Source: Giardia intestinalis
Lineage: Eukaryota
Direction: 5' to 3' (one strand)
Assembly (NCBI GenBank): GCA_000002435.2
Contig: CM018790.1
Length of the DNA: 64,000 bases
Below the pieces are notes generated by a model. It had not been told where the DNA came from and did not search any database. It saw nothing but the letters and a program-made list of their open reading frames with translations. Made by a program: the position numbers and the translations under genes. Shown piece after piece: positions 3,241 to 33,419 of this stretch (positions within the stretch are counted from its first letter, which is position 1; every line of letters begins with the position of its first letter).

Positions 3241-3447
3241 CAAACTAGTTGCCAAGCCGTGGAGGTACTACAACATACTCGATTTCTTAGATGACTACAA
3301 ATAGAGATAATCTAGTACGCAAATACAGGCAGCATAAAGAATCCTGGAAGAATCTATTGTGATCCGCTACGTGTTCCCCCTCTGTGCAAGTGACTAAAAG
3401 GTTTAGGCCAGATCGGTGAAGTAAATGGGGCTAGTCAATTAAAAACC

Positions 3448-10629: not shown

Positions 10630-10713
10630 GGCCTTTATCAGTTTTGCCTTTTTTTCACCGAGGTTTTGCAACCATTGGCGGAAAATCTGTACTTTTTAGA
10701 TATTACATGTGCA

Positions 10714-11145
10714 ATGGCCATTGTTGGCCAAATGTACCCCGAACTGAATGCACTGTCCAACGCATATGCGGTCGACATGGCCATTCAGCACGAGTCTGCG
10801 AGGATCGTTGTAGTACGCTTCGGGCTCCCTGACACCGCTGCCTGCGCTGAGATGGACGAGCTTCTTGCCGAAACGATGGTGCGTCTGTCACGGATGGCCA
10901 TCTTTTACACCGTTGACCGAAATGTTGTGTCAGGATTTGATGAGCTGTATGAGCTAGAGGATGATGATTTTGCGCTCCTCTTCTATTATAGAGGAAGACG
11001 GATGCAGTGTGATTTCGGACGATTTGGAAAGTACAAGTTGACCGTTGTCCCACCAAGCACAGACACCTTCATTGACGTGATCAGCGAATTGTACTATAAT
11101 GCGCAGCTGGGACGGTTTAGCTGTACGTCTCCCTGGCAGCCATGA
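10714..11145 (+). CDS. Dim1 / TXNL4-family thioredoxin-like protein (U5 snRNP 15 kDa type)
   Basis: The ORF-track start at 10666 is TTG. In-frame ATGs lie at 10714 (MAIVGQ) and 10732 (MYPELNA..., which aligns with the canonical Dim1 N-terminus MSYMLPHL). The run ARIVVVRFGLPDTAACAEMDELLAETMVRLSRMAIFYTVDRNVVSGFDELYELEDDDFALLFYYRGRRMQCDFG aligns with Dim1's RVVVIRFGHDWDPTCMKMDEVLYSIAEKVKNFAVIYLVDITEVPDFNKMYELYDPCTVMFFFRNKHIMIDLG. Confidence 0.8.
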   Translation: MAIVGQMYPELNALSNAYAVDMAIQHESARIVVVRFGLPDTAACAEMDELLAETMVRLSRMAIFYTVDRNVVSGFDELYELEDDDFALLFYYRGRRMQCDFGRFGKYKLTVVPPSTDTFIDVISELYYNAQLGRFSCTSPWQP

Positions 11146-16049: not shown

Positions 16050-18239
16050 CTAATACCGATACTCTCCAGAACCCACCGAAGCCATCAGATCTCTCATCTG
16101 GTTCTTTGTAAGTCTCTCACTCGCACGGGAAACTGCCAAGGGACTTGCTGTGATGGACATGGCCGGAACCGATGGCGATCGCGGGTGACTGCGGTGGGAG
16201 GCGGAAGTATCCTGTGGCTGCGCATGAATAGAGAAGCTCACAGAGCGATCAATCAGCCCTCTGTTCTCCATTGCTGTCGCTATATCTCTATCCGCGCGAT
16301 CCATTACATATGTACTGCTAGGTGGAGGCGCACAGGATCGATCAAACCCTCCATATCCATAGCCATTTCCTCTGCTAGAGCTTCCAGACAGCCTATTTGC
16401 CTCGCGTGCTGCATCCTCTATTTGATTGCTAATTGCATCTTCCATAACTGCACGGTTTTCTAGGAGCTGGATTCTTCGTCGGGCTCGCTCTGCCCGCTCA
16501 TTCCGCTCCCGTTCAAGTGCTGCCTCAGTTTCCCTCAAAATACGGAGCTTCTCCTCAGCTTCTTTCCGTGTATTCTGCGACTCTATAGCAAGCTGGTCGA
16601 CTACCCGTCTCGTGCTCTCTATTTCTGCTTCCTTGCAGCGTATATTTCCTTGCAGCCTTTGCATATCACGTTCAAGCTGCATATTTCGACGCTCTCGCTC
16701 GTCCATGGACTCTGTCATGATTACAATGCGAGACTTTAGATTGGCCACCTCGTTTATCCGCTGCTCCAGCTCTCCCTCGCATTGCTTCAGGGAGCTAAGT
16801 AAACTATTGAATTCTCTGCACTTAGTATCATGAACGACCTTTAGATCTGTGAGGTTGTCATAGAGGTCCGACACTCTTCTGTTGAGGCCCTCAATGTCTC
16901 CTTCCATTAAGTTTTTGTCCGCTTGAAGGGATGCCACTTGACCTTGTAGTGCTGTGCACTCGCTGCTCTTGCGCATCATGCCGTCCTTTATTTCTCCGTT
17001 GATTTTCTGCAACTCGCAGCAGGTGTCGGAAAGGGTGCGCAGGTCTGTCCTCAGCTCTTTGATTATTTCAGCCATTGTTTTCTTGCCAGTTGCTGAGAGA
17101 AATGCCCACTTATTACGTATCTGCTTCGACGGAGGCCCGGCCCCGCTTATGGACTTGACGAAATTGCACTCCAGATAAATAGCAGACTTAAGAGCGAGAA
17201 GAGTGATGGCATCCTGGCTTCGCATGCTGTTGTACGTTGTGTTATCGATTAGACTAGCTATCTCGGCTATATCATCGGGGCGCAACTTGTTGACAGAACT
17301 ATTGATATTGTCATTGTCGCTTGAAATTTTGTGTCCATACCCTCTTCTGCTTTTCGTCAGCTCCAGAAGTCTACCAACAAAAACAGCTGCCTTACATATG
17401 CTGCGCAACTTCGAGACAGCCTTTGGCGTGCCCTCAAGGATTCGTCGCATACGAAGAGTCTCGTCCAAGAGTAGCTCAAAATGACCAGTGGTGAAGTCCT
17501 TTTGCCGTCGTAGCTCAGCTACCACTCTGTCCAGCTGGAGCACTTTCTTCGCAAGCTCTTTTGTTGCTGTCAGCGACTGGTTCGCTATTTGCTCATTAAG
17601 CAGAACGGCCCTGCTCAGCATCTCATTCTCCTTACGCACAACAGTGAGCTGTGTATCTAAGCCTGACGCTAGCTGCTCTGCTTTCTCTGTGCGGTCCTGA
17701 AGCACCTTAGTGTTCTCAGTAGCAGCATCAACGCGCCGCTGAAGGTCACTCGACAGCTGCATCTGACCGGAAAGTTGCTGCTGGAGATCAGCAGCTTGCT
17801 TATTCGCGGAAAAAAGCGCGGCTCTGAGAGTTTGTATCTCTTTCTCCTGCTCCTCAGCACGAGTGAGCGAAGCCATGTGCTCTGCACGCAAGATATTTGC
17901 ATGTTCCAGCAATCTCTTAACCTCCATGTCCTTCTCCTGTACTTCCCTTTCCAAAACAACCTTGCGTGCAGAGGTTCGTGAGAGTGCATTTTCTAGTGCA
18001 TCCACCCGTGCAGACTCCTTTAGCTGCTGCATTCGCAGGTTTTCCAAGTCTATCTCCTTCTGCACCGCTGCCGCTTTGACTTCATTCAGGAGCACACGCT
18101 GTTGCTCGAGGGCCAGTATTGATTCCTTATCGATCAGCTCCTGGCGCAGCTCCATGTGTTCTGTGTCAGCTCTCGACGAGCCTTGAACCTGCGTCATATG
18201 GAGCGATGTGTCCATGGGTACCATGCGAGACGTGCGCAT
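16050..18239 (-). CDS. Coiled-coil protein (729 aa), the longer paralog of 9334..10629
   Basis: ATG start. The N-terminus HMELRQELIDKESILALEQQRVLLNEV...ARVDALENALSRTSARKVVLEREV parallels the paralog's HLELRQDLVDRESILALQQQRERLHEV...ARVDALEGALARTSARKTLLEKEL. It carries an extra, apparently non-coiled central segment of ~150 aa. Confidence 0.75.
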   Translation of the reverse strand: MRTSRMVPMDTSLHMTQVQGSSRADTEHMELRQELIDKESILALEQQRVLLNEVKAAAVQKEIDLENLRMQQLKESARVDALENALSRTSARKVVLEREVQEKDMEVKRLLEHANILRAEHMASLTRAEEQEKEIQTLRAALFSANKQAADLQQQLSGQMQLSSDLQRRVDAATENTKVLQDRTEKAEQLASGLDTQLTVVRKENEMLSRAVLLNEQIANQSLTATKELAKKVLQLDRVVAELRRQKDFTTGHFELLLDETLRMRRILEGTPKAVSKLRSICKAAVFVGRLLELTKSRRGYGHKISSDNDNINSSVNKLRPDDIAEIASLIDNTTYNSMRSQDAITLLALKSAIYLECNFVKSISGAGPPSKQIRNKWAFLSATGKKTMAEIIKELRTDLRTLSDTCCELQKINGEIKDGMMRKSSECTALQGQVASLQADKNLMEGDIEGLNRRVSDLYDNLTDLKVVHDTKCREFNSLLSSLKQCEGELEQRINEVANLKSRIVIMTESMDERERRNMQLERDMQRLQGNIRCKEAEIESTRRVVDQLAIESQNTRKEAEEKLRILRETEAALERERNERAERARRRIQLLENRAVMEDAISNQIEDAAREANRLSGSSSRGNGYGYGGFDRSCAPPPSSTYVMDRADRDIATAMENRGLIDRSVSFSIHAQPQDTSASHRSHPRSPSVPAMSITASPLAVSRASERLTKNQMRDLMASVGSGEYRY

Positions 18240-18386
18240 TTAGAAGGAAGGCAAAAGTTAGCAGACTTTATTAAAAGTTGTCTATGTGCTCAATAAAATA
18301 TTAGCTCACGGCTACGGAGGGATTGTTGAAAAACTTCGCAGCCCTTAGCAGTATACCAAAGCTTTATTAAATTGTTCGTTGAGCAG

Positions 18387-19496
18387 ATGCCTCTTCTGTC
18401 TGTCAATAGTTGGTTTGGAACCAAGTCTCCCTTCTTCACTCAGAATATGCGGCACTGCGTGCCTAACCCAGGGGTTATCCTCATAATGTCGCTTTTGTTT
18501 ACCGGATCAATAATTTTCCTAATAATCAGCGCGATAGCTTTTTCGTTCAATTCTGCACAAGCATATGGGATAGCACACTACTCTACACCTTCATCTGGAG
18601 CATCTTCTCAAACAGAGCCAGTGACTGTTACTCTCGAACGATTTAATGTGGAAAAGCCCCTTTACGTATACTACCATCTACAAGACTTCCATCAGAACGT
18701 TCGGTTCTATGTCTCTAGCTTTAGTAGGAAGCAGCTCCAATCAGACAGCTTTAAAGCCGCTGGTCTGAACAAGGACTGCAATAAAGGGGGGACGGTAGTA
18801 GATGAGCCATGCGGCCTTATTTATCAATCCTTATTCAACGATACCTTGGCTAGTACCACAACAAACGAAGTAACCTTTTATATCACCAGCACAGACACCT
18901 CCGCAAATCCGTCTCAACCTATAAAGGTTCAGTTGCCTATTAATACAACGGGGATTGCCTGGAAGGAGGACATCAAGAGCACTAGAATGTATGGAAAGGC
19001 ATTCCAAGCTCTTCCAAATAGTGAAGCTGTTGCAGTATGGATGCGAACAGCACCCCTAAGTACATTTGACAAGCTTTACGGACGGTTCACTGCAGAGCAA
19101 CTCAAGGCCCTCGTCACAGACTCTTACACAGCGGAAACCATATATGATGCTTCGAAGGCTGGCGGTGTAACCGTGGAGTTTTCGGTGACAAATAACTTTC
19201 CATACGGGAAGAAGTCCATTGTGCTGCAGCAAATGACCGTTTTCGGAGGATACTATGAAACAAGGAACTTAGCAATCTTATCTATAATCTTAGGGTGTGT
19301 CATGTTTATCTGCGGACTTACTCTTCTCATCATCTTCCTCGAACGCGGACCGCGGAGTGCCAAGTATAAGACAGTCTTAGAACAGTATCCTATAGTTACC
19401 AATAGCAGCATTCTCCTGTCTGAGCTCGAAAGGATGGGGGACGAGAAGGTCCGCAGAACCATACGCCAGGTAAAGGCCGAAATGGGACTCAAGTGA
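18387..19496 (+). CDS. CDC50/LEM3 (TMEM30) family protein, beta-subunit of P4-ATPase lipid flippases
   Basis: The ORF-track start at 18372 is TTG and the first ATG is at 18387 (MPLLSV...). N-terminal TM (ILIMSLLFTGSIIFLIISAIAF). Family motif PLYVYYHLQDFHQNVRFYVSS (PxYVYYxLxNFYQNHRRYV in other members). C-terminal TM (LAILSIILGCVMFICGLTLLIIFL). Confidence 0.8.
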   Translation: MPLLSVNSWFGTKSPFFTQNMRHCVPNPGVILIMSLLFTGSIIFLIISAIAFSFNSAQAYGIAHYSTPSSGASSQTEPVTVTLERFNVEKPLYVYYHLQDFHQNVRFYVSSFSRKQLQSDSFKAAGLNKDCNKGGTVVDEPCGLIYQSLFNDTLASTTTNEVTFYITSTDTSANPSQPIKVQLPINTTGIAWKEDIKSTRMYGKAFQALPNSEAVAVWMRTAPLSTFDKLYGRFTAEQLKALVTDSYTAETIYDASKAGGVTVEFSVTNNFPYGKKSIVLQQMTVFGGYYETRNLAILSIILGCVMFICGLTLLIIFLERGPRSAKYKTVLEQYPIVTNSSILLSELERMGDEKVRRTIRQVKAEMGLK

Positions 19497-19525
19497 CTCT
19501 AGAGGTAAACAAAACGCAGTGTGGT

Positions 19526-21220
19526 TCACACGCTTTTTCCATCGCAACTGAAGATGTCATCAACGCGCAGGATCATACAAGCATTTTCTATAGCGGCCTT
19601 GAGGACCTGCAGCTTTGTGCTCAGTGGGTCCCAGATGCCCTGCTCCTTGCAGTTGACGAGGAGCCCTGTGACCCCATCGACACCCAGCTGACAGTTCGGG
19701 TCACTGGTGTGGGCAGCCTTGAGCTCGGTGATGGTCCTTATTATATTCCCACCGCAGTTCTGCAGCAGCGTCCGTGGGATCACCTCCAGGGATTTGGCGA
19801 CTGCCTTAATGACAAGCTGAGGCTTTCCGACAAGGGTGTCTGCATACTGAGAGAGTGCCGTCGACAAGTGAGCCTCAAAACAGCCTCCGCCAATGACCAG
19901 GCGCGGGTCAAGGATAATATTCCTGCACACGTGCATGGCGTCCTGAATGTTCCGCTCTATCTCCAGCAGGGTGCTCTTGGAGGCGCCTCGAAGCACAATG
20001 GTACAGGCACTGGCCTTACCCCCAGATTGGTGGATGAAGGAAAAGAACTCGTCACCGATCTTCTGGAGCTCATAGAGGCCTGCGTATGTCCCCACATCAC
20101 TTTCTTGAAGCTCCTCCACGCGACTGACAATGGTGGCACCGGAAACTGCCGCAAGGCGCACGTTGTCTGTCTTCCTGACGCGCCTGAGGACTGTCACGCC
20201 GTGCTGGACAAACATATGAGTCGCCTGATCCGCCACACCCTTCTCGGTGATGACCAGGTCGGGCTTGAAGCTGAGGATCTTCTCCACGTGGGTCCTAATG
20301 TAGTCTTCTTCGACCTTGAGTATGTCTCCTAGATCAGACTTCCCTTGGAACAGCTCTACGTTCATCATTGATTGGGCCTTCTTGTACTCTAGAGGGCAAT
20401 CCAGAAGAAGTATGCGGGGATTCTTGATGTACTTCCTCATATCGGGGTGAATGACATCCTTATTAAGCACTACGCCATCGATGACGCAGCAGTCCTCCAC
20501 AGTCGCACCAGGGATCTTCTCTATGCGGCAAAACCTCTTAATATCAATGTCAACTGAAGCACCAAGCTCTGCTTCATCCCCTTTTGAACGCGCATCCTTA
20601 GTGACACCCACTAGACCCTTGCGCACCTCCGCTCCACGTCCTCTAGCGACTATGCTGACCGCCTCGAGCGCAAGGTTGCACATGAGATCCATCCATCTAC
20701 TGACAAACTTCGTGGATAGCGAGTTCTTTAAAACTGTCATAATAGGGCCTGCCGCCTCAGACTTCAGACCCAGGATCTCTATGCCCTTTATATTTATTTC
20801 AAATGAAGATCTTTCTGCCTCACTCAAAAGAAAGTCCAAGGCTTTCTGGTATCCCTGCGTAATGAGAATAGGATGTATCCCACACTTGAGAAGGGGCTCT
20901 GCCATGGCGATCACCTCCCCTGCCAGGATGACAACGCTTGTGGTGCCGTCTCCGACTTGCTCCTCCTGGGCCCGTGAAACCTCCAGCATGGCCTTGGCTG
21001 CGGGGTGTGCCACGTCGAGCTCGCGCAGGATGGCGTTCCCGTCGTTTGTCATGACCACGCTCCCCATTGAGTCCAGGATCATCTTGAGCATGGAGCGTGG
21101 GCCCATCGTTGTCCTGATGACGTCTGCGACTGTCTTACTTGCCTTGATGTTGTTCATGCGGGCCATTTCTCGGCGCTCGCTCTCGGTGCCTTGGCTCAGG
21201 ACATAGACTTGGGGCTGCAT
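19526..21220 (-). CDS. CCT3: T-complex protein 1 (CCT/TRiC) subunit gamma
   Basis: 564 aa. [35 protein letters not shown] aligns with human CCT3 [35 protein letters not shown]. Other matches: [58 protein letters not shown], and the C-terminal ILRVDDIFS. Confidence 0.9.
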   Translation of the reverse strand: [564 protein letters not shown]

Positions 21221-21299
21221 TTTTTATTAAGGCAGTTTTTTGCCACTCTGTTTACTCTGCTCAGGCAGGCTGACGCAATAGTGCACTGGTATTCATGTT

Positions 21300-22700
21300 A
21301 TGGGGATCTCACATAGACGGGAACGAGAGCCCTCTGCTGTCCTTCTTCTTGGGCCCGGCATATGAGGATGTGAGTCTGCTCATTAAAAAATAGAAACAAT
21401 ATTGCTGTAGTTTTGTCTCTTGGCGATGTCGAGGACCGTGGTACCAGGTGGAAAGCATCGATCTTTGCAGGTAGTTCTCATATCCCTCTCCCTTTCCATA
21501 AGTAGCTTGGCACACTCTGTTTTGTAATGATACACTGCCTTCATAAGAATGGTCTAGCCAGTGGTACTCTGGATGCCAGCTTTTTTGTCCATCAATAGCT
21601 TAACACATTCTGAGTGATTATTATGCGCTGCATACATGAGCGCAGTTTGGCCATGTCAATTTTTCATGCCACCTTCGTGCTTTATTAGCAATGTAACCAC
21701 TTCTGTGTGCCCATGCACCGCTGCTAACATCAACGCTGTCTCTTCGTATCCATTCCATCCACTTATGTCAAAATACTTCGCTGTCTTTCCCTTTCGGATA
21801 GAAATAAAACGATTCACAGCCTCCATATCCCGCATTCTACAGCCTGCATGAGCCTGGTGACGCCTTTATTATCTGTCGGATCAAGGAGCTCCACAATATC
21901 TGTGTGCTTCACTAACAAAGCAAGCATCATCGTGGTTTTACCATTGCTATTCACCCCATATTTACCAGACAAATACTCCAATGCAGTGCTCTTGGAAGCA
22001 GCGCTTGTGAGCAGAGTATATGAGAAATCCTGTATAGCTGACTCCTAAAATCCTTTCTAGAGTCATTTATCTCTCCTGATTTGAGGCTAAGGCTGTTCTC
22101 AAGAGGCTCGATCTCCGATTAGCATTGTCTAGAGCAGCCTCTAGTGCCGTGACTCAAGCCCGTAGTCTTCCTTTTAGAACACCAGATTCTTGAAGCAGCC
22201 TACCAAGCTCCCTGGCTGTTGGTCTTTGAGTGGGGTCTAGAACAAGCGCTTTCTTGAGGATACTCCTTATGAGGTCGTCTTCAACTGCACTCAGGCTGAG
22301 CCTTTGCCCATCAACGAAGACATTCCTCGGGTGCTGCTCCCAGGAGATTAGGCATTTGAAAGTGAAGAGCTCATAGGCGGTAGCACCGAAGACCCGACGT
22401 CGAACGTAGGGCCGGTCTCGTCCCTGAGGTGGATCTCGGGAGCCATGTATGCTTGGTTCCCAAAATGGCACTCCCATTGTGCAGGACATCCTTGCAGAGC
22501 CCGAAGTCCGCAAGAGCTGAGCCTGCCATTTCTGCTGACATCGACTTTGTCGGGGTCGTGAAGGTAGGTAAGGATGATGGCGATCTGCTCCATGATGGAG
22601 AGCACTGTATCGGTAGGGTTACCGGTTCTTGCTCAATCGGCAATCACATCTTGAGGCACCGATCTCAGCGGTCCATGATGATGAAGATGGAGTGAGCGTC
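21300..22700 (-). pseudogene. Decayed NEK-kinase/ankyrin-repeat gene (kinase part at 22150-22700, ankyrin part at 21300-22050), with several frameshifts and stops
   Basis: Minus-strand fragments in different frames: kinase C-lobe pieces (NQAYMAPEIHLRDE; RRVFGATAYELFTFK; NVFVDGQRL..AVEDDLIRSILKKALVLDPTQRPTARELGRLL) and ankyrin pieces (GKTTMMLALLVKHTDIVELL; GYEETALMLAAVHGHTEVVTLLIKHEGGM; GQTALMYAAHNNHSECVKLLMDKKAGIQ). In-frame stops separate the pieces. Confidence 0.55.
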
Positions 22701-23046
22701 TCTGAGCACCCGGTAGTGCCTAATGACATCTAGGTGTGAGCGTCTGGAAATGGTGGCCAGCGCGACCCAGTGGCCTCCGTGAGCTTCCCACTCTGAGTCT
22801 TGGATAGCCACCTATCACATGGACAGTACCAAAGCTGCCCACATCAAGCACCCCTCCTCGCATCGATGCAGCTCGTCGGCGGGCACAGGATATCGAGTGC
22901 ACCGTCCCCAGCCATGACGGTGTCAACGGCGCTGTGCAGAGCACGCTCGGGGGCAGGGAAGCGGCCACCCCTGCTCCCGGTTGCTGGCTGGCTGGCGAAG
23001 TACATAAGGCGCACCCGCTTGTCGGCAGCTGCACCACTAGTGACGC

Positions 23047-23053
23047 GTTTACT
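23047..23053 (-). terminator. Giardia polyadenylation signal AGTAAAC (AGTRAAY class), 13 nt past the VSP stop codon
   Basis: Minus-strand sequence after the stop reads TAG ATGTACTTAGGT AGTAAAC GCG. Seen directly; position is +/-1. Confidence 0.6.
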
Positions 23054-23065
23054 ACCTAAGTACAT

Positions 23066-24277
23066 CTACGCCTTGCCCCTGCAGATGAACCACCAGCAGA
23101 GGAAGCCCACGAGGCCCCCGACGACAACGATGACAGCGACGGAGATCCCCGCGATGGCGCCGGTAGAAAGGCCGCTCTTGTTCGTGCTACCGCCATCTTT
23201 CATGAGGTAGCAGAGAACGGGGCCTTGATTATTAGATGGGGGAGCGCAGCTCGCGCAGTTAGCGACGCCCTGAATGTTATTGCTTGTCTCTGTACACAGC
23301 TTGCATGCTTTACTGGCGTCCAAGTAACGGCCAGGTGGACAGGCGCTGCACTTATTGGGCTGATTAGCTTCGGTGCATGTCGCACAAGTGGAGTCGCATA
23401 ATGGACACATGTTCGAGACAGCTGTCAAGCCATTCGCACACGTTTGGCATTTTCCATCCCCAGTGGGCGTTGTGCAGATGCTCTTCCCGGGGAGCCTCGT
23501 CGTCTGGTAGCACCCGCCCTCCTGGATGAAGTATCCGGCGGCGCAGACCGTGCAGGCACCGTTAGCGGCAGTGGTGCAGAACCGAGTCCTGGCCGCATTG
23601 CTTGTGCAGACGCCATTGAGCGGCACGTTGTTCCCCTTGCACTTCGAGCAGTACTTGGTACCTCCAATTGTTAGGCCGCACGTCTCGCACTCCGGGCCCT
23701 CCACGCATTGCTCCACGCACGTGCCGTCTGTAGGATTGCTCTCGTCGGCGTACCTCAGCATCTTCCCGGCGGGACAGGCCGTGCACTTGGAAGCGCCGGC
23801 CCCGCTGCACTCCGCACAGGAGGGGTCGCAGGGCGCGCACGTTTGTCCGGATAGATACGTTCCGACAGGGCAGGCATCTAAGCATGCCTTCTTCGTCGGG
23901 GTCAGATGCTTTCCTGGTTCACATTCTTCGCAAGTCTGCTTGTCCGGGGAGCACGTCTGGCAGTTCACGATCGGGCAGTCGGCCTGCGGCGTGCACTGCG
24001 TCCCGTCGTCGTTGGGGTCGAAGCCAGGGCTACACGTCTCGCACCTTGTGTTGTCGCCAGAGACGCACTGGGCGCAGTTCTGGACTCCGCAGTCGGACGC
24101 GGGGTTCTTGGTGCACTTCTTCGTGGTGGGGTTGAGGGTGTAGCCTGAGCCGCACGTCTTGCACTGCTGGGGGTTGCTTTCCTCGCAGACATCACAGCCC
24201 TCGACCTCGCACGGCGCGGTCTTTTCGTTGTGCTTTGCCAGCACGGTTGCACAAACTAGGAGAAATCCTACCAACAT
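23066..24277 (-). CDS. Variant-specific surface protein (VSP)
   Basis: The ORF track extends to 24334 but begins with GTG. The first ATG (codon 20, at 24277) gives the signal peptide MLVGFLLVCATVLA. About 12% Cys with many CXXC motifs (CDVCEE, CAQC, CQTC, CAEC, CETC, CATC), a GGC/TM region and the invariant tail ...GLVGFLCWWFICRGKA*. Confidence 0.9.
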   Translation of the reverse strand: MLVGFLLVCATVLAKHNEKTAPCEVEGCDVCEESNPQQCKTCGSGYTLNPTTKKCTKNPASDCGVQNCAQCVSGDNTRCETCSPGFDPNDDGTQCTPQADCPIVNCQTCSPDKQTCEECEPGKHLTPTKKACLDACPVGTYLSGQTCAPCDPSCAECSGAGASKCTACPAGKMLRYADESNPTDGTCVEQCVEGPECETCGLTIGGTKYCSKCKGNNVPLNGVCTSNAARTRFCTTAANGACTVCAAGYFIQEGGCYQTTRLPGKSICTTPTGDGKCQTCANGLTAVSNMCPLCDSTCATCTEANQPNKCSACPPGRYLDASKACKLCTETSNNIQGVANCASCAPPSNNQGPVLCYLMKDGGSTNKSGLSTGAIAGISVAVIVVVGGLVGFLCWWFICRGKA

Positions 24278-24862
24278 TAGCCGGAGTTCGTATGCCACTG
24301 CTCTTCTGTCAGGCCGGTGCGTTGCCGCGAGCACTGAGAGACAGCCGCTCTTGCTCTCTTGATCGGTTGGACTGGAGAGGGATAAGATAATAGCACACCC
24401 ACCGGAGGCCGGCTGATGGCACGGTTCCCCCTGGCTTCGATAGGAACAGGACCAGTGAGGAGTAGACTCAGACCGTGCCTCTCTTGTGGAATGATTGATT
24501 GGGGTGCACTCTTGTACATTGCTGTCACTGTATCACTGGGCCCACCTGCAGGTGCGCTCAGAGGCCTCACGGGTAAGCTGCGCCCACTTCTCGACCGTCC
24601 GGAGACGATGGCTGGTTGTGGATAACATACTAAAAGCTCCTCTCCATCGATGCATCCAGAGCTCAGTGTCGTCCCGGTCGGCATACTCTGTCGGGGCACT
24701 CCGCGTCGGCCTCCAGGGTTCGGCCTGCTCAGGGCCATACGAGCCGCTAATGTGCCCTCCTTGGCCTGCCATCAGCAGCTCGCACTAGGCGCCTTACTCA
24801 GGCAGTAGCCAAGGCCACTCCAAAGGGTGGCTCCGGATTGCAGTTAAAATCAGCGGCGGCTG

Positions 24863-27030
24863 TTGACTCCACTCCCTATCCCAGCTGCCGCAGAGGGTGT
24901 CCTGGGAGACGCTAGTAACAGTGCAGTTAGCGGCTTTGCAGGGCCGATGGGCGTTTGGGGAGCGTGCTCAGAAGGGGCCTTCAGTGTTATCTACTCTCTC
25001 AGGGGATGCCCCCACCTCATTGTGAAGGAGATCCGGCTCGACGGTCTGGGTCAGCACGGTGTGGATGCTAAAGCGTGGGCTGACCGCTCTTTTTATCCTC
25101 TTTCACCCGGGGGTCCTCAAGTACCATCAAGTGATTGAAGACGAGGGCCTTATCTATGTCGTCACGGACCGGCACAGCAGGACTCTTGACAACTTCCTCA
25201 CCGAGCACAAGCGAAGGAAGATCCCCGTGTCTGCCGGCGTGATCCTCTCCGTCATGAAGCAGGTCGCCGCCGCCCTCGCCTACCTTCACAGCGTCAGTGG
25301 GGCAAACACTAAAGGCCTCGTCCACTGTGACCTCAGGCCTGCCAGCATTCTTATCAGCGCAGACGGAGAGCGCTTCATCATCGCCGACTTCGGCCTCTGC
25401 AAGGACGCCCTGTGGAGTGAGAGCACTCTCATAGGAATAATGGCGTACATGGCCCCCGAGGCGCTCCTCCGTAATGAGGCCAGCCCCGCCTCCGACGTAT
25501 GGAGCCTCGGGGTCATCATTTATGAACTAGTAACTCTGAGGAGACCGGACTTCTTGGGGGGCAAGGAGCCGGCAGAGGTCTTCGTCGACGGGTGGAGGCC
25601 GGACCTGAGCGGTGTCGCTGATGGCTTCATAAAGAGTGTTCTGGAGAGGATATTCGTGCTGGAGCCAGAGAGGAGGCCGACGGCCAGGGAGCTGCACGAG
25701 ACGTTCGCTACATTCGACATCCCAGTTGGTGAGCTGAGGGCTCAATACGCGGTGCTGAAGTACGAATGCGGCTCCTTGGAGGCTGCGCTGAATGGCGCTA
25801 ACGCCAGGATCGCGCTGCTGGAAGAGGATGTTAAGACTAAATCCACTAAGATCGACGCACTCGAAGACCAAGGTAAGGAACATCTAGCCATGATTAAGGC
25901 ACTGGAGAGTAGGCTTGCACAGTTCAGTGACAGGATGAACACGGCTGACCCTCAGTCCAGCCTCCTTTTGCTGCCCAGGCTGATGCGTGCCGCGCATACG
26001 AACGGCATGGAGACCGTCCGGATGCTGCTTGAAGAAAGACTCGGTGTTGGTCAGCGCGACGCACAGGGGCACGTTGATCCCGTCGAGTTGTTTGTTGGGG
26101 AGGAGAGGGGCCTCCAGGACAAGAACGGCTGGACTACCTGATGATCGCCACAGAGGAGGGCTATGCAAGAACTGCCTCCCTTCTGGTCCCATATGAGAAG
26201 GACTGGATCGACAGCGAAGGCAAGACGGCCTTGGTGATTGCGGCAGAGGCAGGACATGAAACTGTGGTGGAGGCCATCGACCCAACCGATGAGAACGGCG
26301 TCACGGCGCTCATGCGGGCTGTTAATAGAAATGATGTGGGGGCTGTAAAAGCACTCTTACCCATCCAGAGGGGGAGGAAAACATACAAAGAGGTCACAAT
26401 AAGCGGATGGTACATGGGCAAAGGAACAGCTCTGATGGTGGCTGCGGCAAGTGGACACGCAGAACTAGTAGAACTGCTAGCAGAGCACGAAAAGGGGAGA
26501 AAGTAGGCGGTTGGGCCGCTCCCGTATTCGCGGCACTGTGCAATCGTTCCAATGACCCCCTGGTGGACTATATTGGGCACGTTGAGCTTTTGATGGAGTA
26601 TGAGAGCAGTATCTCAGGGTGGACGGAGCTCATGTATGCAGCAGCACGAGGGCACGAAGGAATCGTAGAGCTGCTCAAGCAGGAGACTGGCATAAGGAAC
26701 AACGAGCATCAGACTGCCCTCATGTGGGCAGCACGCAATGATCATCCAGAGTGCGTCAGGCTCCTACTGAAGGACGAAGGCGGCATGCAAACGACCAAGG
26801 GCTGGACCGCTCTTATAAACGCAGCATATAGCAACGCCGTGGAATGTGCAAGACTTCTTAAGGAAAACGAGAAGGAGCTGAAGACAATTTCTAGCTGCCA
26901 TGATCACTCGCCCGGTACCACTGTCCTCAGTATCGCTAAGAAGAAGGATCGCAAAGAGATAGTAGGCATCCTCCCAAACGAGATCTGCTCTTCTTTATCG
27001 AGGTCGGCTTGCCAGCTCCTGTCCGAGTAA
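24863..27030 (+). pseudogene. NEK kinase with C-terminal ankyrin repeats, disrupted by at least 3 frameshifts (reading frames 2, 0, 2, 1)
   Basis: Four consecutive plus ORFs together rebuild one NEK/ankyrin protein: 24863..25138 (GAFSVIYSL..HLIVKEIRLDGL, kinase subdomains I-II), 25059..26141 (HPGVLKYHQVIEDEGLIYVVTD..HCDLRPASILI..IADFGLCK..MAYMAPE..DVWSLGVIIYELVT.., ending ..KNGWTT*), 26141..26506 (TALVIAAEAGHETVV..GVTALMRAVNRNDVGAVKAL..GTALMVAAASGHAELVELL) and 26407..27030 (WTELMYAAARGHEGIVELL..HQTALMWAARNDHPECVRLL..GWTALINAAYSNAVECARLL). At 26141 the sequence tggactacctgatgatcgcc reads W T T stop stop. The paralog pattern GWTALMIAA predicts a 1-nt loss near there. Confidence 0.65.
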
Positions 27031-27049
27031 ACCCGTCCAGGATCCGAAG

Positions 27050-29950
27050 CTTAGATGCCGCCCACTCTGGAGAAGAGCCTTGTGCATCCCGCCTGGAAGC
27101 CGTTGGGTGCTCCACTATGCATTCCGGAGCGTCTCTCCTCTCTGACTGGCTTGGGTCAACCATCGTCTGACATCTAGTGAGCACCCGCTGTCTCGGGCCT
27201 TGCGTCAGTCGTGGCGATCCAGTCTCGAGAGCAGTTAACTCTGGCCATGTACTCTGGAGTAGCTTTGTGGCCCTGGTGCTCTACGACGAGGATCGCACGC
27301 CACGACCCCGGGTGTCGACTCCCGTTCCTCGGGGTGCCTCTTCATCTTCTCGTGGAGGGCACCATCTGTTCCATTATCAAGGATGCGCTCCCCGTGTGCC
27401 TCTATCCTGGAGTCATAGTACGCATTCGTGGATGCCGATGGAGTACTCTTATACGTTGTGTCGGGGGAGAGGCCCACCCCTCTGCTCATGGATCGCAGTG
27501 CGCTCTTGCAGGTGGTCCGTCACCCAGCACGAGACCGTGTCGACGCTCACCCTGTGCAGTGCGTCTGGCTCAGTGACCTGTGGGCTGGTCCATCTGCACT
27601 GCACAACACACTTGGGGGGAATGATTCGGTCTGTCGAGGCGTCGTCCAAAGCATCACGAGCGATCAAGACCGGTTCGCCGTTAGGCCGTCTTTCTCTACA
27701 CCGGCACCCGTCTACTCGAGGGTGTCAGGTACTGCCAGCTGCTGTAGTAGACACCCAGCAGGTGGCCCAGACCACTACTCCTCGGTGCGGACAGGATCAG
27801 TCCGCCTCTGCCAACCAGACACCCCAGGAGCCCCATCTCTTGTCGAGGGACTCACATAGGCCACGTGTGGGTCCATCTCGACCAGCGGGGCGAGTGATTA
27901 GTGCCATCACTGGCTTCAGGTTCTCTGCTGCCTTGAGGGGTCCTTCGAGACCAGCCAGGAAGAAGGCCTCCTGCTCCTCTGTGCTCCTACACCCAGTGCT
28001 GACCGTCGAGCCATGCTGCTTCCCAGGCCTGTCGCCTCTGTGACTATCCTCGCCGCGTCACTGTTGTCGGCATGGGCACTGAGTGGGGTATCTCCTCAGC
28101 TCCCGATGAGCAGGTTCTGTCCCGCGCAGTGTGAAGGCATACTCAGGGCCCCGAGGGACCGAATCCAGGGGTGCAGCGTGTCGCAGCTGAAGGAAGGCCT
28201 CGACGCAGCTCCTCGGGACTACCTTGTGGAGCGAATCATGATCGTCCATTGATTGTGGTCGCCCTGTCTCATTCTTGAGGAAGGACCAGGCGGAACCGTA
28301 CAGAGCACGCATCCCATCCTATGGATCGCGCTGAGGATCTCGTTGAAGGCCTGCACCCGGATGGACTCGCCAGCGCAGACCCGGGGACTTCGAGCCCCGT
28401 GGACTGGCCGTCCGTGCTCTCCGATGGCTGAGGGGCTCGTGTCCCTCAGGGGCCAGGCCGTCCTGATCCGGCCCCTCTGGATAGCAAGGTTCTGGTCGTC
28501 GGTGGCGCTGTCAGGGTGCAGCTCCCCCTCGAGGCGAGGCAGAGGCTGCAGGCCGGGCAGTGGGGTGGTGACTGTTGCTCCTCTGCTTCCCCGCTGTGTG
28601 GGGAGGCACGTCTCCTCGGCTCTCGACTGGAGCTCTGCGGGGTGTTAGGTACCCTCCCCTGAGCACGTTCGCACGACGGGCGCTGAGGGGGATTTCCTTC
28701 TCTATCCCCGCTGCCCCACTCAGCAGCGCCCTGCATCCGGTGTCTGTGCTGCATGCGTCTGGACGGCCTCACCGCGGAGGGTTTTCGCGCAGGACAGGCA
28801 CGTGCTCTTCCGTTCCTACTAGTTCAACGTTCGCCTGGTGCCACTACAGCGTAGGGCGCCCCTCTCCATCAGGTTCCTAAGATCCTCGTTCTCGCTGTGA
28901 TACCTGATCTCTCCCCCGTGAGGGGTGGGGTCCACGGTGCACTGGTGTGTGTCCGGGACGATGCCCCCTCATGGAGCTCTGCAGGTTCCAGGACCCTCTG
29001 GGGACAGCCAGCAACTGGGACCCCTGCTGTGAGCTAGGTTGAACTAGCTCCACCGGGCCACGAGCAGCTTCATGGCACTCTGGTGTTGCTGGTCTCTCAA
29101 CCGCACATGCTTGGCCTGTCCTAGCAGATAGTGGGGTCGTGCCTGAGTACTTTCGAGGAGTCTGGGAAGCGCTCCGGTCCGATGCTTTCTATCCAGAGCA
29201 TCGCGACGGGCAACGGTGAGGGCCCGCGTGGGACACCGCACTTGGGCACCAAGGCTCGGTGTGCGTGAGCTGGCACCGTCTGTCGGTCGAAAAGCTGCAG
29301 AAGGAGCAGCAAGAGGAGCCCAAAGCGGGAGAGGGTTCTCCAGACGTGCTGCTCGAGACCCTTTAGAAGTCGAAAGAGACATGGCAGGAGACGCAGAAGT
29401 GGTCGAGTGGCTCTTCGTGCTGTGGATCGCGTAGGAGGTCCCCGAGGGCGCAGTCTCTTAGTGAACCTGGCGTTCTTGAGCCAGTTCATGTAGTCAGCGA
29501 GTGACCCCTTCAGGGCTAGGTGGTCTCCTAGAGAAACGGTCATTGAGGGCCTGCCACCATGCGCCGCTCTCCATGATAGGGAGATTCAGCGGAGAGAGGT
29601 GTGGGGCCCCTTACTCATTCTATCGGATGCTTTCCAGACTCCATTCTTCGAGCCCCTGAGAACCTTCCTCGGCAGCTCGCTCGTGGGAGCGGTTGCCGGT
29701 CTGCTGCTTGCTGAGGGCTGGGCGTCGGGGCTATCAGCTTTCCGTTTGGGCTTCTTCTCCCGCCGGAACTGGATGGCACTAGATTCCTGGACCCTAGGTT
29801 CGAATGTCGAACAGATGAGTGAGAGAAGACCTGCCTGGTGTGGCGACTCGCACGGAATTTGCTCGGACAGATTGTCTAGAGGTTCCCCAATGGAGTTAAA
29901 TATCTCATAGATTGATGATTTTAGAGACAACAAAGGTGGCAAATTTCAGA
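27050..29950. other. GC-rich interval of about 2.9 kb (hand counts roughly 62-72% GC) without a convincing single coding frame; nature unknown
   Basis: Overlapping 60-290 aa ORFs occur in all six frames, as expected when AT-rich stop codons are depleted. None shows a family motif. Counts I made by hand: 43/60 GC at 28381-28440 and 37/60 at 27481-27540. I found no rRNA signature sequences. Confidence 0.3.
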
Positions 29951-30023
29951 GATGAGTGGATTACGCCGGGTGGTTTACTCAAGCTGCAGCTACCAAGATT
30001 CTAGTTAAAGCTCCTACCTTAAG

Positions 30024-33000
30024 TTACGTGGTAGTTTGCATCCAAATGAGCCTAGCAACCCGAATGGCGTCGCGTGTCGACCTTAGTGGGGCATTGAGTA
30101 ACGAACCTAAATGATTTGCAACCTCGAAGCGCTTGGATTCTAAAAACGAATAGGCCACAGGATCTGCACCAACACCGTATCGAAGCCGGCCAATTGCTGC
30201 TACAATCAATGCGCAGCAGTGGACTATTTTTGTGTTTGCCTCCTTGAGTAGCCTCATGGATTTCTCTAGAAGCACTAGGATGCCCTCTTGATCTAGCTGG
30301 CGGGATGTGACCCGTTGCTCTAGGATTGCTCCGCAAAGAGTGCTAGTAGGCAGATCCTCGAGGAGCTCATTTAAAGAGATAGCTTCAGATATAGTTTGAT
30401 AGGCGTACGTGGTGTTCGTCTCTTGGAGCATCAGTATAGCAGCGTAAAAGGCGGATCTATCTATACACTTTAAAGCTTTCAAGACCGAGGACAGAAAGGA
30501 GTGAAGTAAGCCTATGTCCTGCGAGGCTTGTAGCACAAAGTGCGTTAGTGCGGAGACGATACAAGGCCCATGTGCTCCCAGAGAGGTTATTGTCCCGAGT
30601 AGTCTATTCACGGCATTTATAAATATAGGCATTTCCTCTGGCGAGCACCATTTGAGAGAGTTCATTGCAATAAGCGTACAGTACTGTGCATCGAAGTCAG
30701 TGGTAGCTAACTGTGCACAAATCTTGATGTACTCAGTACGATTGTGGTGAGATAGATATTGTGCAATAAATAAGGCATCTGGAAGTTTATACTTTAAGCC
30801 CTTTTCTATAAGTGCGCAGGCCTCTGGGTGAGAATCAAAGGCGTATAAATGCAGACGTATTGATAAGTGGAGGCAGTACGCTATTACTTGTGCTTGTAAA
30901 TAACTATCTACGGACTTCTCAAGTCTATTGATTCCCTCCGCTAGACTAGCCACTGCTCCCCCAGCTGACGCTCCATCGATGACTTCTCTAACAAGTGTCT
31001 GGAAGTATTCATTATTTAACAGATCCTCAACTAAATCTAAAACTGGCTTATTTTGTGTCAGTATGGATGTGATGAGCAGGCCTTCAAAATCTTTGATGAT
31101 GCTTGCTCTAATATTCTGTCCGTTAAGAGTTGATAAGGCAAAAGGAAGAGGCAAACCCTCATTCAATTGTATCGTCCTTAGAATGTGTAGATCAACACTG
31201 GCCATTATCGAGCAAAGACGATGCCTGACTGTATCTGGTGTTCCAGCCGTATAATTAACTAGACCAAATAATAGAGACGCCTTCAAACCAGCCATGACTT
31301 CCTCTGGCACATGTGATTGGCAAAATGATATTATGTGCTCCCAACTAGGATGGGTAACAGGAAGGTCCAGCCCCACAGAGCTAAGAGCGTAATAGTATCG
31401 CAGTATGCAAAGCAGATCATCAAGGGCCTCCGGTGCTAGAGACGATACAGTATCTATGTACATTTGTATGGTTTCTAGAAGCTGAGAGGATAGGAGAGGA
31501 TCGCTGATTAGGTGACAGTTGCTGAACGATATGGCAAGGACGTGTGTTCTCAGTCCAAATCTGACCCAGTGCTTCTTGGTTGCTTCGCTAAAGAGCATCA
31601 TAAACTTACATGTTTGCAGAGCGTGTCCCTCTGCGAGTACCATGCATTCGTTGAGAATTTCAATAAAGAGAGACCCCTCAATTACATCGCCAGCGGCAAG
31701 GTGTTCTACTAACAAGTTGAAAAATGTCGTTGAAAAGGCTTCCTTCCCCTGGTCAAGCCTACAGTATGTGCATAAGAGCTTGCAGTTGCTAGAAAAGATC
31801 TTCATGTTCTCGGTAGACCCCATAGAGATCTCCCGCTTTATTGTATCTTCCAGGTGCGCAGAAAACGTGCTTGCAACTTCTGTGTCGTAGTGAGAGAGCA
31901 TTAGCAGAAGAGACTCCTTGGCGGGACGGTCTGCCGAAGGAAACTGATCATAAATGAGCTCATTTGTAATTTGATAGAAGAGGTCATCTGCGTATCCAGC
32001 AGGAGTCAGGCTGACGGCAAGCTTGTTGGTAAATAAGTCAGTGAGCAATTGGCTGAACGTGGCGCTCTCCTGCAGCTTATTGAGTTGTTCAGCACTAAGG
32101 TGCATGTTGGAGAACTCAGGTAAGCGCATTCGTGAATGAATGACATTATACGTCTTTTCTGCAAGTAGCGTAAACATAGCTTGGAGAGATGGCAGGTTGT
32201 GCCCAAGTGCTTCGGGAAGTGTTTCTCGAAAGAGCTTTTCAAAGAAGTTAGAGAGGCTAAGGAAAACTGCACTTAATGACACTGATGGTTTGGCATCCTT
32301 GTTAGCAGAGTTGAGAATGGCGGTAAGAACCGCAGGTACGGCACTGATGCTGGAGTGTACTCTAGCGTCGGCAGTAAGAGAAGCTTCAAGTGTCAAAAAG
32401 AGCTGTCTACGCTCCTCTTCAGTGTCTGTCTCCAGAACACGCTCTGCGATCATCTGATACAAGCGCTCAGAGCCACTGGGATGAATTAGTGCTGAAAGTA
32501 GGGCCGCACGTAGTTCATCGGCTGTTAAATTGTCATCTGGATCTGGCGAATACTCTAGTGGAATGTACTCAATGAGAAACTCAAAGACATTTTCATCTGC
32601 ATCATCGTGAAGCTGAGACAAGGTCTCTTCACTGATAGAGAAACTGTAGTGGTGGAGTGATAGCCCGCATACCTCGTTCAGAGTGGGGCAGAGACACTCG
32701 TTGATGAGTAAAATAGCGAAGTGCAAGTACTCAATGAGTGTTCGCAGAATGGCAACAAGCTTTGCTACTAGGAAGATTATCGCCCCGCTTCGTTCTCCAC
32801 GAAAAGCTAAGGTCAGCGTTTTCAGTAATTCAGTGCCTGCCTTATAGCCATCGACAAGATCTACTACCGTTTTAGACGTGCCACTCGATCTGGAAGATGA
32901 TAGCTCTCCTCTCGTTTCCAGCCAATCAAGGAGCAGGGTGCATATGTTCTTCTTAGCCAAAACTTTTGAGTACGTGATGCGTGGACTAAGCTTGAGAAGT

Positions 33001-33419
33001 TTGTTCATGTATCTCCGCATAAGAGATACTTCAGCAAAAGACTGGTCGCTCAAAAAAGCCTCACGAGCTAGAGGAAGAAGATGCTCTGCCACAGCTCCTG
33101 CTTCTAAGAGTGACGAGCACCGAGATATACTAAACTCTGCTAGGGCTGTCTGGATTTCTGCATCCAGCAAGGGCTTACTTTTGGAAATTGCTAGACTGAC
33201 CAGTTCGACAATACGGCATGACTGTGCATCCTTATAGTTCTTCCCAGTGTTCTCTGCGATCTTAATGAAGGCAAGAAGGCATTCTTTTGTGGCGAACGAT
33301 ACCTGCGAACGAATGTCATCCAGCGCCTCCTCGGATGAGATGAGGTTTGTGTAGCTTGTGATCAACCGCTTGAGATCTTCATCGATATCAGGAGGGACAG
33401 CAGAGCCCCTAGCAGTCAT
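30024..33419 (-). CDS. Large hypothetical protein (1131 aa), probably all-helical, leucine-rich and repeat-like (ARM/HEAT-like, unproven)
   Basis: Long ATG-start ORF. Composition and periodicity suggest solenoid helices. No catalytic motif and no family I could name. Confidence 0.7.
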   Translation of the reverse strand: MTARGSAVPPDIDEDLKRLITSYTNLISSEEALDDIRSQVSFATKECLLAFIKIAENTGKNYKDAQSCRIVELVSLAISKSKPLLDAEIQTALAEFSISRCSSLLEAGAVAEHLLPLAREAFLSDQSFAEVSLMRRYMNKLLKLSPRITYSKVLAKKNICTLLLDWLETRGELSSSRSSGTSKTVVDLVDGYKAGTELLKTLTLAFRGERSGAIIFLVAKLVAILRTLIEYLHFAILLINECLCPTLNEVCGLSLHHYSFSISEETLSQLHDDADENVFEFLIEYIPLEYSPDPDDNLTADELRAALLSALIHPSGSERLYQMIAERVLETDTEEERRQLFLTLEASLTADARVHSSISAVPAVLTAILNSANKDAKPSVSLSAVFLSLSNFFEKLFRETLPEALGHNLPSLQAMFTLLAEKTYNVIHSRMRLPEFSNMHLSAEQLNKLQESATFSQLLTDLFTNKLAVSLTPAGYADDLFYQITNELIYDQFPSADRPAKESLLLMLSHYDTEVASTFSAHLEDTIKREISMGSTENMKIFSSNCKLLCTYCRLDQGKEAFSTTFFNLLVEHLAAGDVIEGSLFIEILNECMVLAEGHALQTCKFMMLFSEATKKHWVRFGLRTHVLAISFSNCHLISDPLLSSQLLETIQMYIDTVSSLAPEALDDLLCILRYYYALSSVGLDLPVTHPSWEHIISFCQSHVPEEVMAGLKASLLFGLVNYTAGTPDTVRHRLCSIMASVDLHILRTIQLNEGLPLPFALSTLNGQNIRASIIKDFEGLLITSILTQNKPVLDLVEDLLNNEYFQTLVREVIDGASAGGAVASLAEGINRLEKSVDSYLQAQVIAYCLHLSIRLHLYAFDSHPEACALIEKGLKYKLPDALFIAQYLSHHNRTEYIKICAQLATTDFDAQYCTLIAMNSLKWCSPEEMPIFINAVNRLLGTITSLGAHGPCIVSALTHFVLQASQDIGLLHSFLSSVLKALKCIDRSAFYAAILMLQETNTTYAYQTISEAISLNELLEDLPTSTLCGAILEQRVTSRQLDQEGILVLLEKSMRLLKEANTKIVHCCALIVAAIGRLRYGVGADPVAYSFLESKRFEVANHLGSLLNAPLRSTRDAIRVARLIWMQTTT

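Follow-up and report, generated by a model that had tools for sequence, protein, structure and literature searches.

What kind of sequence is the tract at positions 27050-29950 of the 64,000-nucleotide stretch of Giardia DNA analysed here (the window), which is GC-rich and in which no reading frame can be resolved? A preliminary description, made from the letters of the window, assigned it no function because no reverse transcriptase (RT) motifs were found; it named a decayed duplication, a long non-coding RNA and a breakpoint as candidates, and among the settings in which such sequence may occur it listed dead GilD-type retroelements. When other Giardia assemblages are compared, these candidates give way to a retroelement copy, and the tract is itself that copy rather than a neighbor of one. 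We consider it highly probable that a Giardia non-LTR (LINE-like) retrotransposon fitting the GilD/Genie 2 family accounts for the tract, as one dead copy, internal to the chromosome, on the minus strand.

Results

Composition and coding signal

The GC content of the tract is 0.606, as compared to 0.498 across the whole window, and no other 2.9 kb of the window is richer (the peak among all 2.9-kb segments is 0.611, starting at 27001), so that the tract was correctly singled out against a background of about half GC. The figures of 62-72% that accompanied this claim were somewhat high, with 500-nt segments of the tract ranging from 0.59 to 0.66 and 200-nt segments from 0.48 to 0.705. All six frames carry ORFs (60-288 aa), numerous and short because stop codons are scarce in GC-rich sequence, and the absence of a resolvable frame was borne out: there is no 3-base signal in the tract, its period-3 signal-to-noise ratio being 1.5 as compared to 17-32 in five real genes of the window, and scoring by codon usage, with the long genes of the window as the training set, favored none of its frames.

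The lack of domain-level signal was likewise reproduced, as Pfam gave nothing significant with the tract's own ORFs (ten ORFs, then four stop-to-stop frames), and Rfam at the gathering threshold identified no rRNA or other RNA family in the tract, in agreement with the reported absence of an rRNA signature. The sole Rfam match in the window is a Giardia U4 snRNA (56077-56171). A search of 5.8 billion proteins with the concatenated minus-strand ORFs (1863 aa) gave no match among the 8000 candidates scored, those with the most words in common with the query, a procedure that may miss true relatives because low-complexity GC-rich frames may crowd them out. Exact-protein look-ups of ORFs 27177-28043 (+), 29121-29543 (-) and 26407-27030 (+) returned no further assemblage A contigs over the tract, and the window compared with itself contained one copy of the element and no second.

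Relatives in assemblages E and B

By blastn, the tract matches at least four copies in P15 (assemblage E), collinear at the DNA level, with E values from 1e-32 to 0. Window 27153-29587 is collinear with dispersed copies at L008 7474-11138, L009 725-4099 and L006 20408-23370, and also with a syntenic copy at L006 13396-17140, which adjoins the orthologous 1131-aa gene. Three P15 contigs together carry at least five copies, complete or partial, which are 82-99% identical among themselves; the units measure ~3.75-4.2 kb. Their ORFs match Pfam RVT_1 at 37.0 and 36.6 bits (cut-off 29.6) and, in one case, zf-C2H2_4 at 28.5 bits (cut-off 27); P0006 is recorded as 'Reverse transcriptase [Giardia lamblia P15]', and the best matches of its RT region among solved structures are to LINE-1 ORF2p (E 1.5e-4 to 4.6e-4). 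A protein from assemblage B, P0163, matches RVT_1 at 94.4 bits over positions 1-203 of the 205-position profile. Relatives in both assemblages are far less decayed than the window copy: their ORFs measure 657-957 aa, and identity between copies reaches 99%. The clear identity to a known retroelement that the preliminary description had set against its own reading is present, at the level of family homology.

Parts of the remnant

Matches to P0163 and P0007 (GLP15_192) form a series on the minus strand from residue ~56 to residue ~897; the frame changes repeatedly along the series, and in-frame stops occur (Table 1). In the N-terminal region, tblastn places P0007 residues 56-286 at window 29726-29133 (E 9e-12) and residues 108-399 at 29598-28861 (E 3e-15), in different frames, and the P0163 matches are collinear with them. 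Both minus-strand ORFs that had been suspected of being remnants of a frameshifted gene fall in this region, the second of them in part; the first, 29121-29543 ('...GSLADYMNWLKNARF...'), has its counterpart near the N-terminus of the element protein (P0007 '...GSIADYMNWLKEARV...'). Downstream, the P15 zinc-finger ORFs match window 28852-28460 (E 1.5e-13, 37% identity) with stops inside the match, and P0163 residues 382-497 correspond to 28852-28538.

Table 1. Features of the element remnant and its neighborhood (positions in the window)
Feature	Coordinates	Strand	Basis or content
Whole non-LTR (LINE-like) retrotransposon remnant, ~2.9 kb	26985..29890	-	blastn to P15 copies, MAFFT alignment
5' terminal inverted repeat and 5' leader remnant (probable, boundary uncertain)	29768..29890	-	Alignment through the syntenic copy only
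N-terminal region of element ORF, remnant	29121..29726	-	tblastn of P0007; includes ORF 29121-29543 and part of ORF 29586-29942 (basic patch)
C2H2 zinc-finger region remnant, in-frame stops	28460..28860	-	tblastn of P15 zinc-finger ORFs
Reverse transcriptase domain remnant	27941..28420	-	P0163 and P0012 matches
C-terminal (putative restriction-like endonuclease) region remnant	27334..27541	-	tblastn of P15 ORF L006 20365-20943
Element 3' terminal sequence	26985..27035	-	Local alignment to L006, L008 and L009 3' ends
Intact VSP	23066-24334	-	Pfam VSP, 400 bits
Broken (frame-shifted) NEK kinase/ankyrin gene	25059-27030		Includes ankyrin ORF 26407-27030 (+)

In the RT domain, residues 679-708, 816-840 and 847-897 of P0163 match window ~28400-28312, 28222-28148 and 28146-28024, and P0012 matches 28222-28085 (E 1e-13). 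The earlier finding that no RT motifs exist holds literally for the window copy, because they have been deleted: motifs 1-3 are gone through a ~211-nt deletion, and YADD is lost too. However, flanking RT sequence is still recognizable via homology, the surviving segments being pre-RT 'QAFNEILSA' and 'EAFLQLRHAAPLDSVPRG'. In the C-terminal region, P15 ORF L006 20365-20943 matches window 27541-27479 and 27435-27334 (E 3.5e-9). This ORF carries a motif-like pattern (RHDAIS..., KPGLFLPD...VDIGVV), and in the window the equivalent of 'KPGLFLPD...VDIGVV' is broken by 33-nt and 10-nt deletions, the putative endonuclease core being gone. Judged by eye from the motif pattern, the C-terminal domain is probably a restriction-like endonuclease; Pfam matched no endonuclease profile on the P15 ORFs, and one pairwise comparison of the same ORF with the C-terminus of P0022 (full RT/endonuclease-type) gave a weak match (E 1e-5).

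Extent and termini

On the strength of the alignments, the remnant can be placed securely over 26,985-29,767, and its 5' side probably reaches ~29890. At the 3' terminus, window 27034-26988 aligns with L006 17357-17405 at a score of 39 (36-39 for the L006 and L008 3' ends) as compared to a shuffle maximum of 25; this end runs in antisense into the ankyrin ORF, whose last codons and stop codon it covers. On the 5' side, window 29767-29743 aligns with L008 7250-7274 at a score of 45 (shuffle maximum 27), and direct alignment tests of the interval upstream, 29768..29890, gave none above shuffles.

No direct LTRs were seen in the P15 copies, whose ends are inverted repeats: ~190 bp of 5' terminal sequence recur in reverse complement at the 3' terminus (in L008, 7075-7266 and 11217-11409, 92-93%). 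The syntenic L006 copy retains 44 nt at 73% complementarity (13560-13603 and 17333-17376) plus 30 nt at 97%. In the window copy just a repeat core of 17-25 nt (TCCGGCGGGAGAAGAAG) is recognizable, and when its own ends were tested for pairing none scored above shuffles.

Decay and divergence

Where it aligns to the coding sequence of P0006, the window copy shows 38 indel events, of which 29 shift the frame, and three projected stops; its 26 deletions of at least 10 nt sum to ~1.0 kb. The copy in isolate DH, from an independent assembly, is as broken, and several deletions (e.g., 47 nt at 29316) are present in the window, in DH and in the syntenic P15 copy while the other P15 copies lack them. 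These deletions, frameshifts and stops, together with the missing codon periodicity, agree with the earlier characterization of the tract as GC-rich non-coding or heavily decayed sequence. Identity between the window and the syntenic P15 copy is 74.3%, with approximately one third of the alignment columns being gaps, and the neutral reference, 466 four-fold sites of the adjacent gene, stands at 75.8%. The divergence thus matches the neutral rate, and there is no sign of sequence constraint.

Neighborhood

The locus is chromosome-internal, a gene-poor island with VSP and NEK/ankyrin genes, flanked by conserved single-copy housekeeping genes syntenic with P15 and DH. The tract had been placed immediately downstream of a VSP cluster, which is incorrect; the VSP there is a single intact gene, and the frame-shifted kinase/ankyrin gene is in between (Table 1). 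Over a block of ~24.2-29.3 kb the window is 11-18% diverged from DH, both isolates belonging to assemblage A, as compared to 1.7% at neutral sites next door, and short-read assemblies end inside the element.

Discussion

The ancestral element would have been ~3.9-4.2 kb long with one ORF, in which C2H2 zinc fingers in the N-terminal region were followed by a central RT and a C-terminal region, probably a restriction-like endonuclease, and would have been flanked by terminal inverted repeats of ~190 bp. The high GC content of the tract is that of the element family. The insertion beside the 1131-aa gene predates the divergence of assemblage A from E; the timing of the element's death is inferred. 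Neutral drift and many internal deletions, frameshifts and stop codons followed, leaving a remnant that now encodes nothing and is inert as a mobile element. The P15 ORFs resemble R2-type animal elements in domain order, which runs from N-terminal C2H2 zinc fingers through an RT to a C-terminal Cys/His motif and what may be a PD-(D/E)XK-like endonuclease. However, nothing points to site specificity for rDNA here, and in the sequence search of solved structures LINE-1 ORF2p alone was recovered and R2 was not.

WB contains three retrotransposon families, two of them telomeric, and RT, VSP and HCMP genes form GC-rich islands in its genome (PMC3091692). The dead family occupies gene-poor internal regions beside VSP genes, not telomeres (PMC2861651), and in the WB reference now in use, pseudo-RTs and remnants of RTs are annotated close to VSPs (PMC7000408). 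The kind of element found here has therefore already been described, and the finding is in this sense ordinary.

By elimination and by its described features (location, internal deletions and, in the P15 relatives, inverted repeats), the family appears to be GilD (= Genie 2). Like the tract, GilD/Genie 2 is RT-derived and LINE-like, dead through internal deletions, substitutions and frameshifts, and chromosome-internal in a gene-poor GC-rich island with a VSP adjoining; the likening is to the published description, from which no difference emerged. GilD, reported by Arkhipova and Morrison in 2001, is the 'dead' non-LTR family of Giardia lamblia WB and is considered one family with the Genie 2 of Burke et al. 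in 2002, copies of which reportedly have inverted repeats of up to 172 bp; terminal inverted repeats would be a further feature in common with the P15 relatives of the tract. The WB copies have been published as 'exclusively dead', whereas the P15 and assemblage B relatives identified here are much less decayed.

The divergence from DH raises a question about the surroundings of the element. Non-allelic conversion or exchange between assemblage A paralogs, with the element and the broken NEK/ankyrin gene forming one duplicated block (~24.2-29.3 kb), would explain both the 11-18% divergence of that block and the breaks in short-read assemblies there, although we regard such a history as rather unlikely. 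The same observations can be taken further, to a remnant that has been co-opted as a long non-coding or antisense transcription unit, as a source of small RNAs or as a recombination substrate shaping the VSP/NEK island. Giardia retrotransposons have been reported as small-RNA sources (PMC10999387), and the remnant has been kept at one position since before the A/E split. However, it has diverged from the syntenic P15 copy at the neutral rate, with about a third of the columns gapped, and it matches no Rfam family, so that co-option is very unlikely.

A decayed GilD/Genie 2 copy has also to be distinguished from a fragment of GilM or GilT (Genie 1), two families that are associated with telomeres and may be active. 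These share with it the host and the basic architecture of a single-ORF non-LTR element with an RT and a C-terminal endonuclease-type region, and related Giardia 'Reverse transcriptase/endonuclease' proteins do exist (P0018). Going by their names, P0018 and P0022 appear to be GilM/GilT proteins, but the RT region of P0006 is 30-37% identical to them (BLASTP) as compared to 66-97% to fragments of its own family, and neither gives a tblastn match on the window. GilM and GilT form sub-telomeric head-to-tail arrays with intact ORFs, whereas the tract is an isolated dead copy with no intact ORF at an internal locus, between conserved single-copy genes and outside any head-to-tail telomeric array; moreover, GilM measures 5.5 kb (5,474 bp; PMC7000408) as compared to the P15 units of 3.75-4.2 kb. 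We thus consider membership in GilM or GilT extremely improbable.

There is next to no chance that the tract is an ordinary GC-rich gene whose frame was lost to errors of sequencing or assembly, or else filler of rDNA-related or subtelomeric origin. It does have ORFs of up to 288 aa and is GC-rich like Giardia rDNA, but it has neither a period-3 nor a codon-usage signal, and its concatenated minus-strand ORFs found no counterpart among the 8000 candidates scored. Its deletions and frame breaks are seen again in DH, which was assembled independently, and in part also in P15 (ruling out a gene with sequencing errors); it has no rRNA match (ruling out rDNA), and housekeeping genes syntenic with P15 lie on either side. 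A decayed VSP or HCMP was dropped as a candidate after the RT and zinc-finger homology emerged.

With the tract read as a dead non-LTR copy, no ORF inside the 2.9 kb should be called a gene in annotation, and this includes the two protein-like ones. Because the remnant is older than the A/E split and has diverged at the neutral rate, it can be used as a local neutral yardstick. It also provides a worked example of how frame-less GC-rich islands in Giardia can be identified by assemblage comparison despite the loss of their catalytic motifs. If the block conversion considered above is true, dead GilD copies would be recombination substrates that remodel VSP islands. Assemblages B and E have much better-preserved members of the element family than A does, and with ORFs as long as 957 aa and 99% identity between copies there, this 'dead' family may have been active much longer in those two assemblages.

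Results

The GC-rich tract at 27050–29950 is a genuine feature, rightly spotted in the preliminary description: its GC content is 60.6%, slightly below the 62–72% counted there by hand, as compared to 49.8% for the window, and among all 2.9-kb windows the highest-GC stretch (61.1%) begins at 27001. The claim that it has no resolvable reading frame held. Open frames of 60–288 aa occur in all six frames, as described; period-3 power is 1.5 times background, compared to 17–32 times in five real window genes; and log-odds scoring by codon usage, with twelve long window genes as the training set, favored no frame over 27000–29950 and clearly resolved the frames of the two flanking genes, kinase/ankyrin and 1131-aa. 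A Pfam search of the tract ORFs gave no match and an Rfam scan of the tract found no rRNA or other RNA family, which bears out the reported absence of domain and rRNA signal. The placement "immediately downstream of the VSP cluster" requires correction: there is one intact VSP, and the kinase/ankyrin gene (25059–27030) lies in between.

Features of the locus, limits of the window copy, and full element units in P15
Feature	Position	Strand	Evidence
VSP	23066–24334	minus	Pfam VSP, 400 bits
NEK-type kinase and ankyrin-repeat gene, broken over three frames	25059–27030	plus	ORFs below
Kinase part	ORF 25059–26141	plus	Pkinase
Ankyrin parts	ORFs 26141–26506, 26407–27030	plus	Ank
Element 3' terminus	27034–26988	minus	score 36–39 vs shuffle maximum 25
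Element 5' side, secure limit	29767	minus	conserved core TCCGGCGGGAGAAGAAG
Single-copy 1131-aa gene	30024–33419	minus	
Full P15 units	L009 508–4396; L008 7233–11426; L006 13660–17410		

The concatenated minus-strand ORFs had no match in a protein database (8000 word-sharing candidates scored). The syntenic loci of DH (assemblage A2; contig L003) and P15 (assemblage E; contig L006) were retrieved via the 1131-aa neighbor gene, and by blastn window positions 27155–30024 were collinear with L006 13396–17140, a 4.2-kb gene-free stretch after the orthologous gene in P15, and also matched a second, inverted copy 3 kb onward (L006 20408–23370). The P15 copies are less decayed than the window copy, and their ORFs contain 'LVLIPKDETGSKYRPIAISE', 'SLDMTNAFNSIP', and 'IAYADDTLIF' as well as several C2H2 fingers; Pfam identified RVT_1 (37.0 and 36.6 bits; cut-off 29.6) and zf-C2H2_4 (28.5 bits; cut-off 27). 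With a composite of these ORFs as query, we found P0006, 'Reverse transcriptase [Giardia lamblia P15]' (657 aa), and P0007 (GLP15_192, 720 aa). An exhaustive HMMER search gave 592 relatives of P0006, and the ten relative clusters looked up included an assemblage B protein, P0163 (QR46_4912, 957 aa), that is 71% identical to P0006 and has an RVT_1 match of 94.4 bits covering the whole profile. Remoter relatives are Giardia 'Reverse transcriptase/endonuclease' proteins (30–37% identity by BLASTP) and Spironucleus RTs (33%), and the element's RT region is similar in sequence to LINE-1 ORF2p structures.

The three full P15 units give an element length of 3.75–4.2 kb, and P15 copies are mutually 82–99% identical. 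Their domain order is an N-terminal region, C2H2 fingers, RT, and a C-terminal segment whose pattern (RHDAIS..., KPGLFLPD...VDIGVV) suggests a putative restriction-like endonuclease; a Pfam search gave no match for this segment, and pairwise comparison with the C-terminal part of an RT/endonuclease-type protein gave a weak one (E 1e-5). A ∼190-bp terminal inverted repeat takes in the ORF start (L008 7075–7266 vs 11217–11409, 92–93%); in L009, what adjoins the 5' end is instead an inverted copy, 500 bp long, of a segment from the element's internal 3' part (1–498 vs 3520–4018). Inverted termini are unusual in a non-LTR element. P15 L008 also carries a more divergent copy (3154–4422, 3583–5567), which shares ∼67% identity with the main P15 copies, has a 422-aa ORF matching RVT_1 (45 bits), and may represent a second subfamily. 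Between two inverted element copies on P15 L006 lies an AT-rich (GC 0.36–0.41) 837-aa gene with an SLFN_AlbA_2 domain (17596–20109), which is missing at the corresponding place of the window and may be an assemblage-specific insertion or laterally acquired.

In the window copy, the position of the 3' terminus implies antisense overlap with the last codons and stop codon of the ankyrin ORF 26407–27030, and alignment via the syntenic P15 copy probably extends the 5' end to ∼29890. Matches to P0007 and P0163 run collinearly from ∼29726 down to ∼28024 with repeated frame changes and in-match stops ('TL*WHQ', 'PR*GRP', and 'S*GDTPLSAHADNSDAARIV' replacing 'RLIAYADDILIFHSDDSDATEII'). The two minus-strand ORFs suspected of being remnants of a frameshifted gene proved to be such: 29121–29543 is the N-terminal region, its 'GSLADYMNWLKNARF' and 'GLEQHVWRTLSRFGL' pairing with 'GSIADYMNWLKEARV' and 'GLEQHIWGNLTHLGL' of P0007, and the basic patch of 29586–29942 lies close to the element ORF start. 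Relative to the P0006 coding sequence, 38 indel events were counted, of which 29 shift the frame, plus three projected stops; the figure of 905 nt deleted from the coding part counts ∼270 nt of insertion private to the L008 reference. Over the whole element, 26 deletions, each 10 nt or longer, remove ∼1.0 kb in total, one of ∼211 nt having eliminated RT motifs 1–3 and two of 33 and 10 nt having broken the putative endonuclease core. Terminal inverted repeats appear eroded in the window copy, where a 17–25-nt core is recognizable and the two ends do not pair above shuffled sequence.

The majority of these deletions are common to DH, and several (e.g., 47 nt at 29316) occur in the syntenic P15 copy as well but not in other P15 copies; insertion and part of the decay are thus older than the assemblage A/E split. 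The window and syntenic P15 copies are 74.3% identical over aligned columns (about one third of columns being gapped), as compared to 75.8% at four-fold degenerate sites of the neighboring 1131-aa gene (n = 466), and on this sequence comparison the tract evolves neutrally.

Proteins neighboring the tract have orthologs at 99% (DH) and 88% (P15) identity; together with the U4 snRNA described below, this places the window on a chromosome of Giardia assemblage A. The NEK/ankyrin gene is probably a pseudogene; its DH ortholog is broken up likewise, and P15 has an intact 769-aa paralog (L008 12113–14422). A second kinase C-lobe remnant lies at 22154–22513 (minus strand), 69% identical to 25383–25498, inside another 1.8-kb stretch devoid of long ORFs (21220–23066) that is flanked by a CCT chaperonin gene and the VSP. 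The entire 21.2–30.0 kb forms a gene-poor island. Elsewhere in the window, the Giardia U4 spliceosomal snRNA lies between two long genes (56077–56171, plus strand; Rfam RF02493, 126 bits).

Divergence from DH is uneven. Four-fold sites of the 1131-aa gene differ by 1.7% (98.3% identical), as compared to 11–18% (82–89% identity) in a block that begins at ∼29.3 kb and extends leftward as far as the end of the DH contig, at least to 24.2 kb. Transitions outnumber transversions 4.3 to 1 in this block, and the derived changes fall evenly on the two lineages (139 and 121). Four short-read contigs carrying the 1131-aa gene were checked (L001, L002, L004, and L005), and all end 300–500 bp beyond that gene, at positions mapping to ∼29518–29720 within the element 5' part. 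This pattern suggests that assemblage A genomes carry near-identical repeats at other sites, or that coverage falls there for GC-related reasons.

Discussion

Retroelement origin of the tract is very secure. Of the three retrotransposon families in WB, two are telomeric and may be active, and RT, VSP, and HCMP genes give rise to GC-rich islands of atypical composition (PMC3091692); pseudo-RTs and RT remnants near VSPs are annotated in the current WB reference (PMC7000408). Copies of the 'dead' family, GilD, lie in gene-poor regions adjoining VSPs and are broken by microhomology-mediated deletions (PMC2861651). Compared by published description, the window copy agrees with GilD in location and mode of decay; it is unlike GilM and GilT, being non-telomeric, outside any array, and not close to RT/endonuclease proteins. 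The family is reportedly also called Genie 2, with inverted repeats said to reach 172 bp (Burke et al., 2002). Such repeats are seen in the P15 relatives, whereas those of the window copy appear to have eroded past detection. The name GilD/Genie 2, assigned by description, is probable.

The divergence from DH and the contig breaks, the sole part of the locus without a full explanation, together suggest paralogous NEK-element blocks in assemblage A; three exact-protein look-ups for such copies found none. Candidate causes are exchange (a paralog swap), gene conversion, a chimeric DH contig end, or simply repeat-induced assembly breaks.

We conclude that the tract is a dead non-LTR retrotransposon copy, probably of GilD/Genie 2 type, whose biology is already known. 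The family, dead in assemblage A, is far better kept in assemblages B and E, where long ORFs, a complete RVT_1 domain, and near-identical copies (L008 45–1393 vs 9519–10868, 99.3%) are present. These features hint that the family was active more recently in those assemblages or that segments were duplicated there in the recent past.
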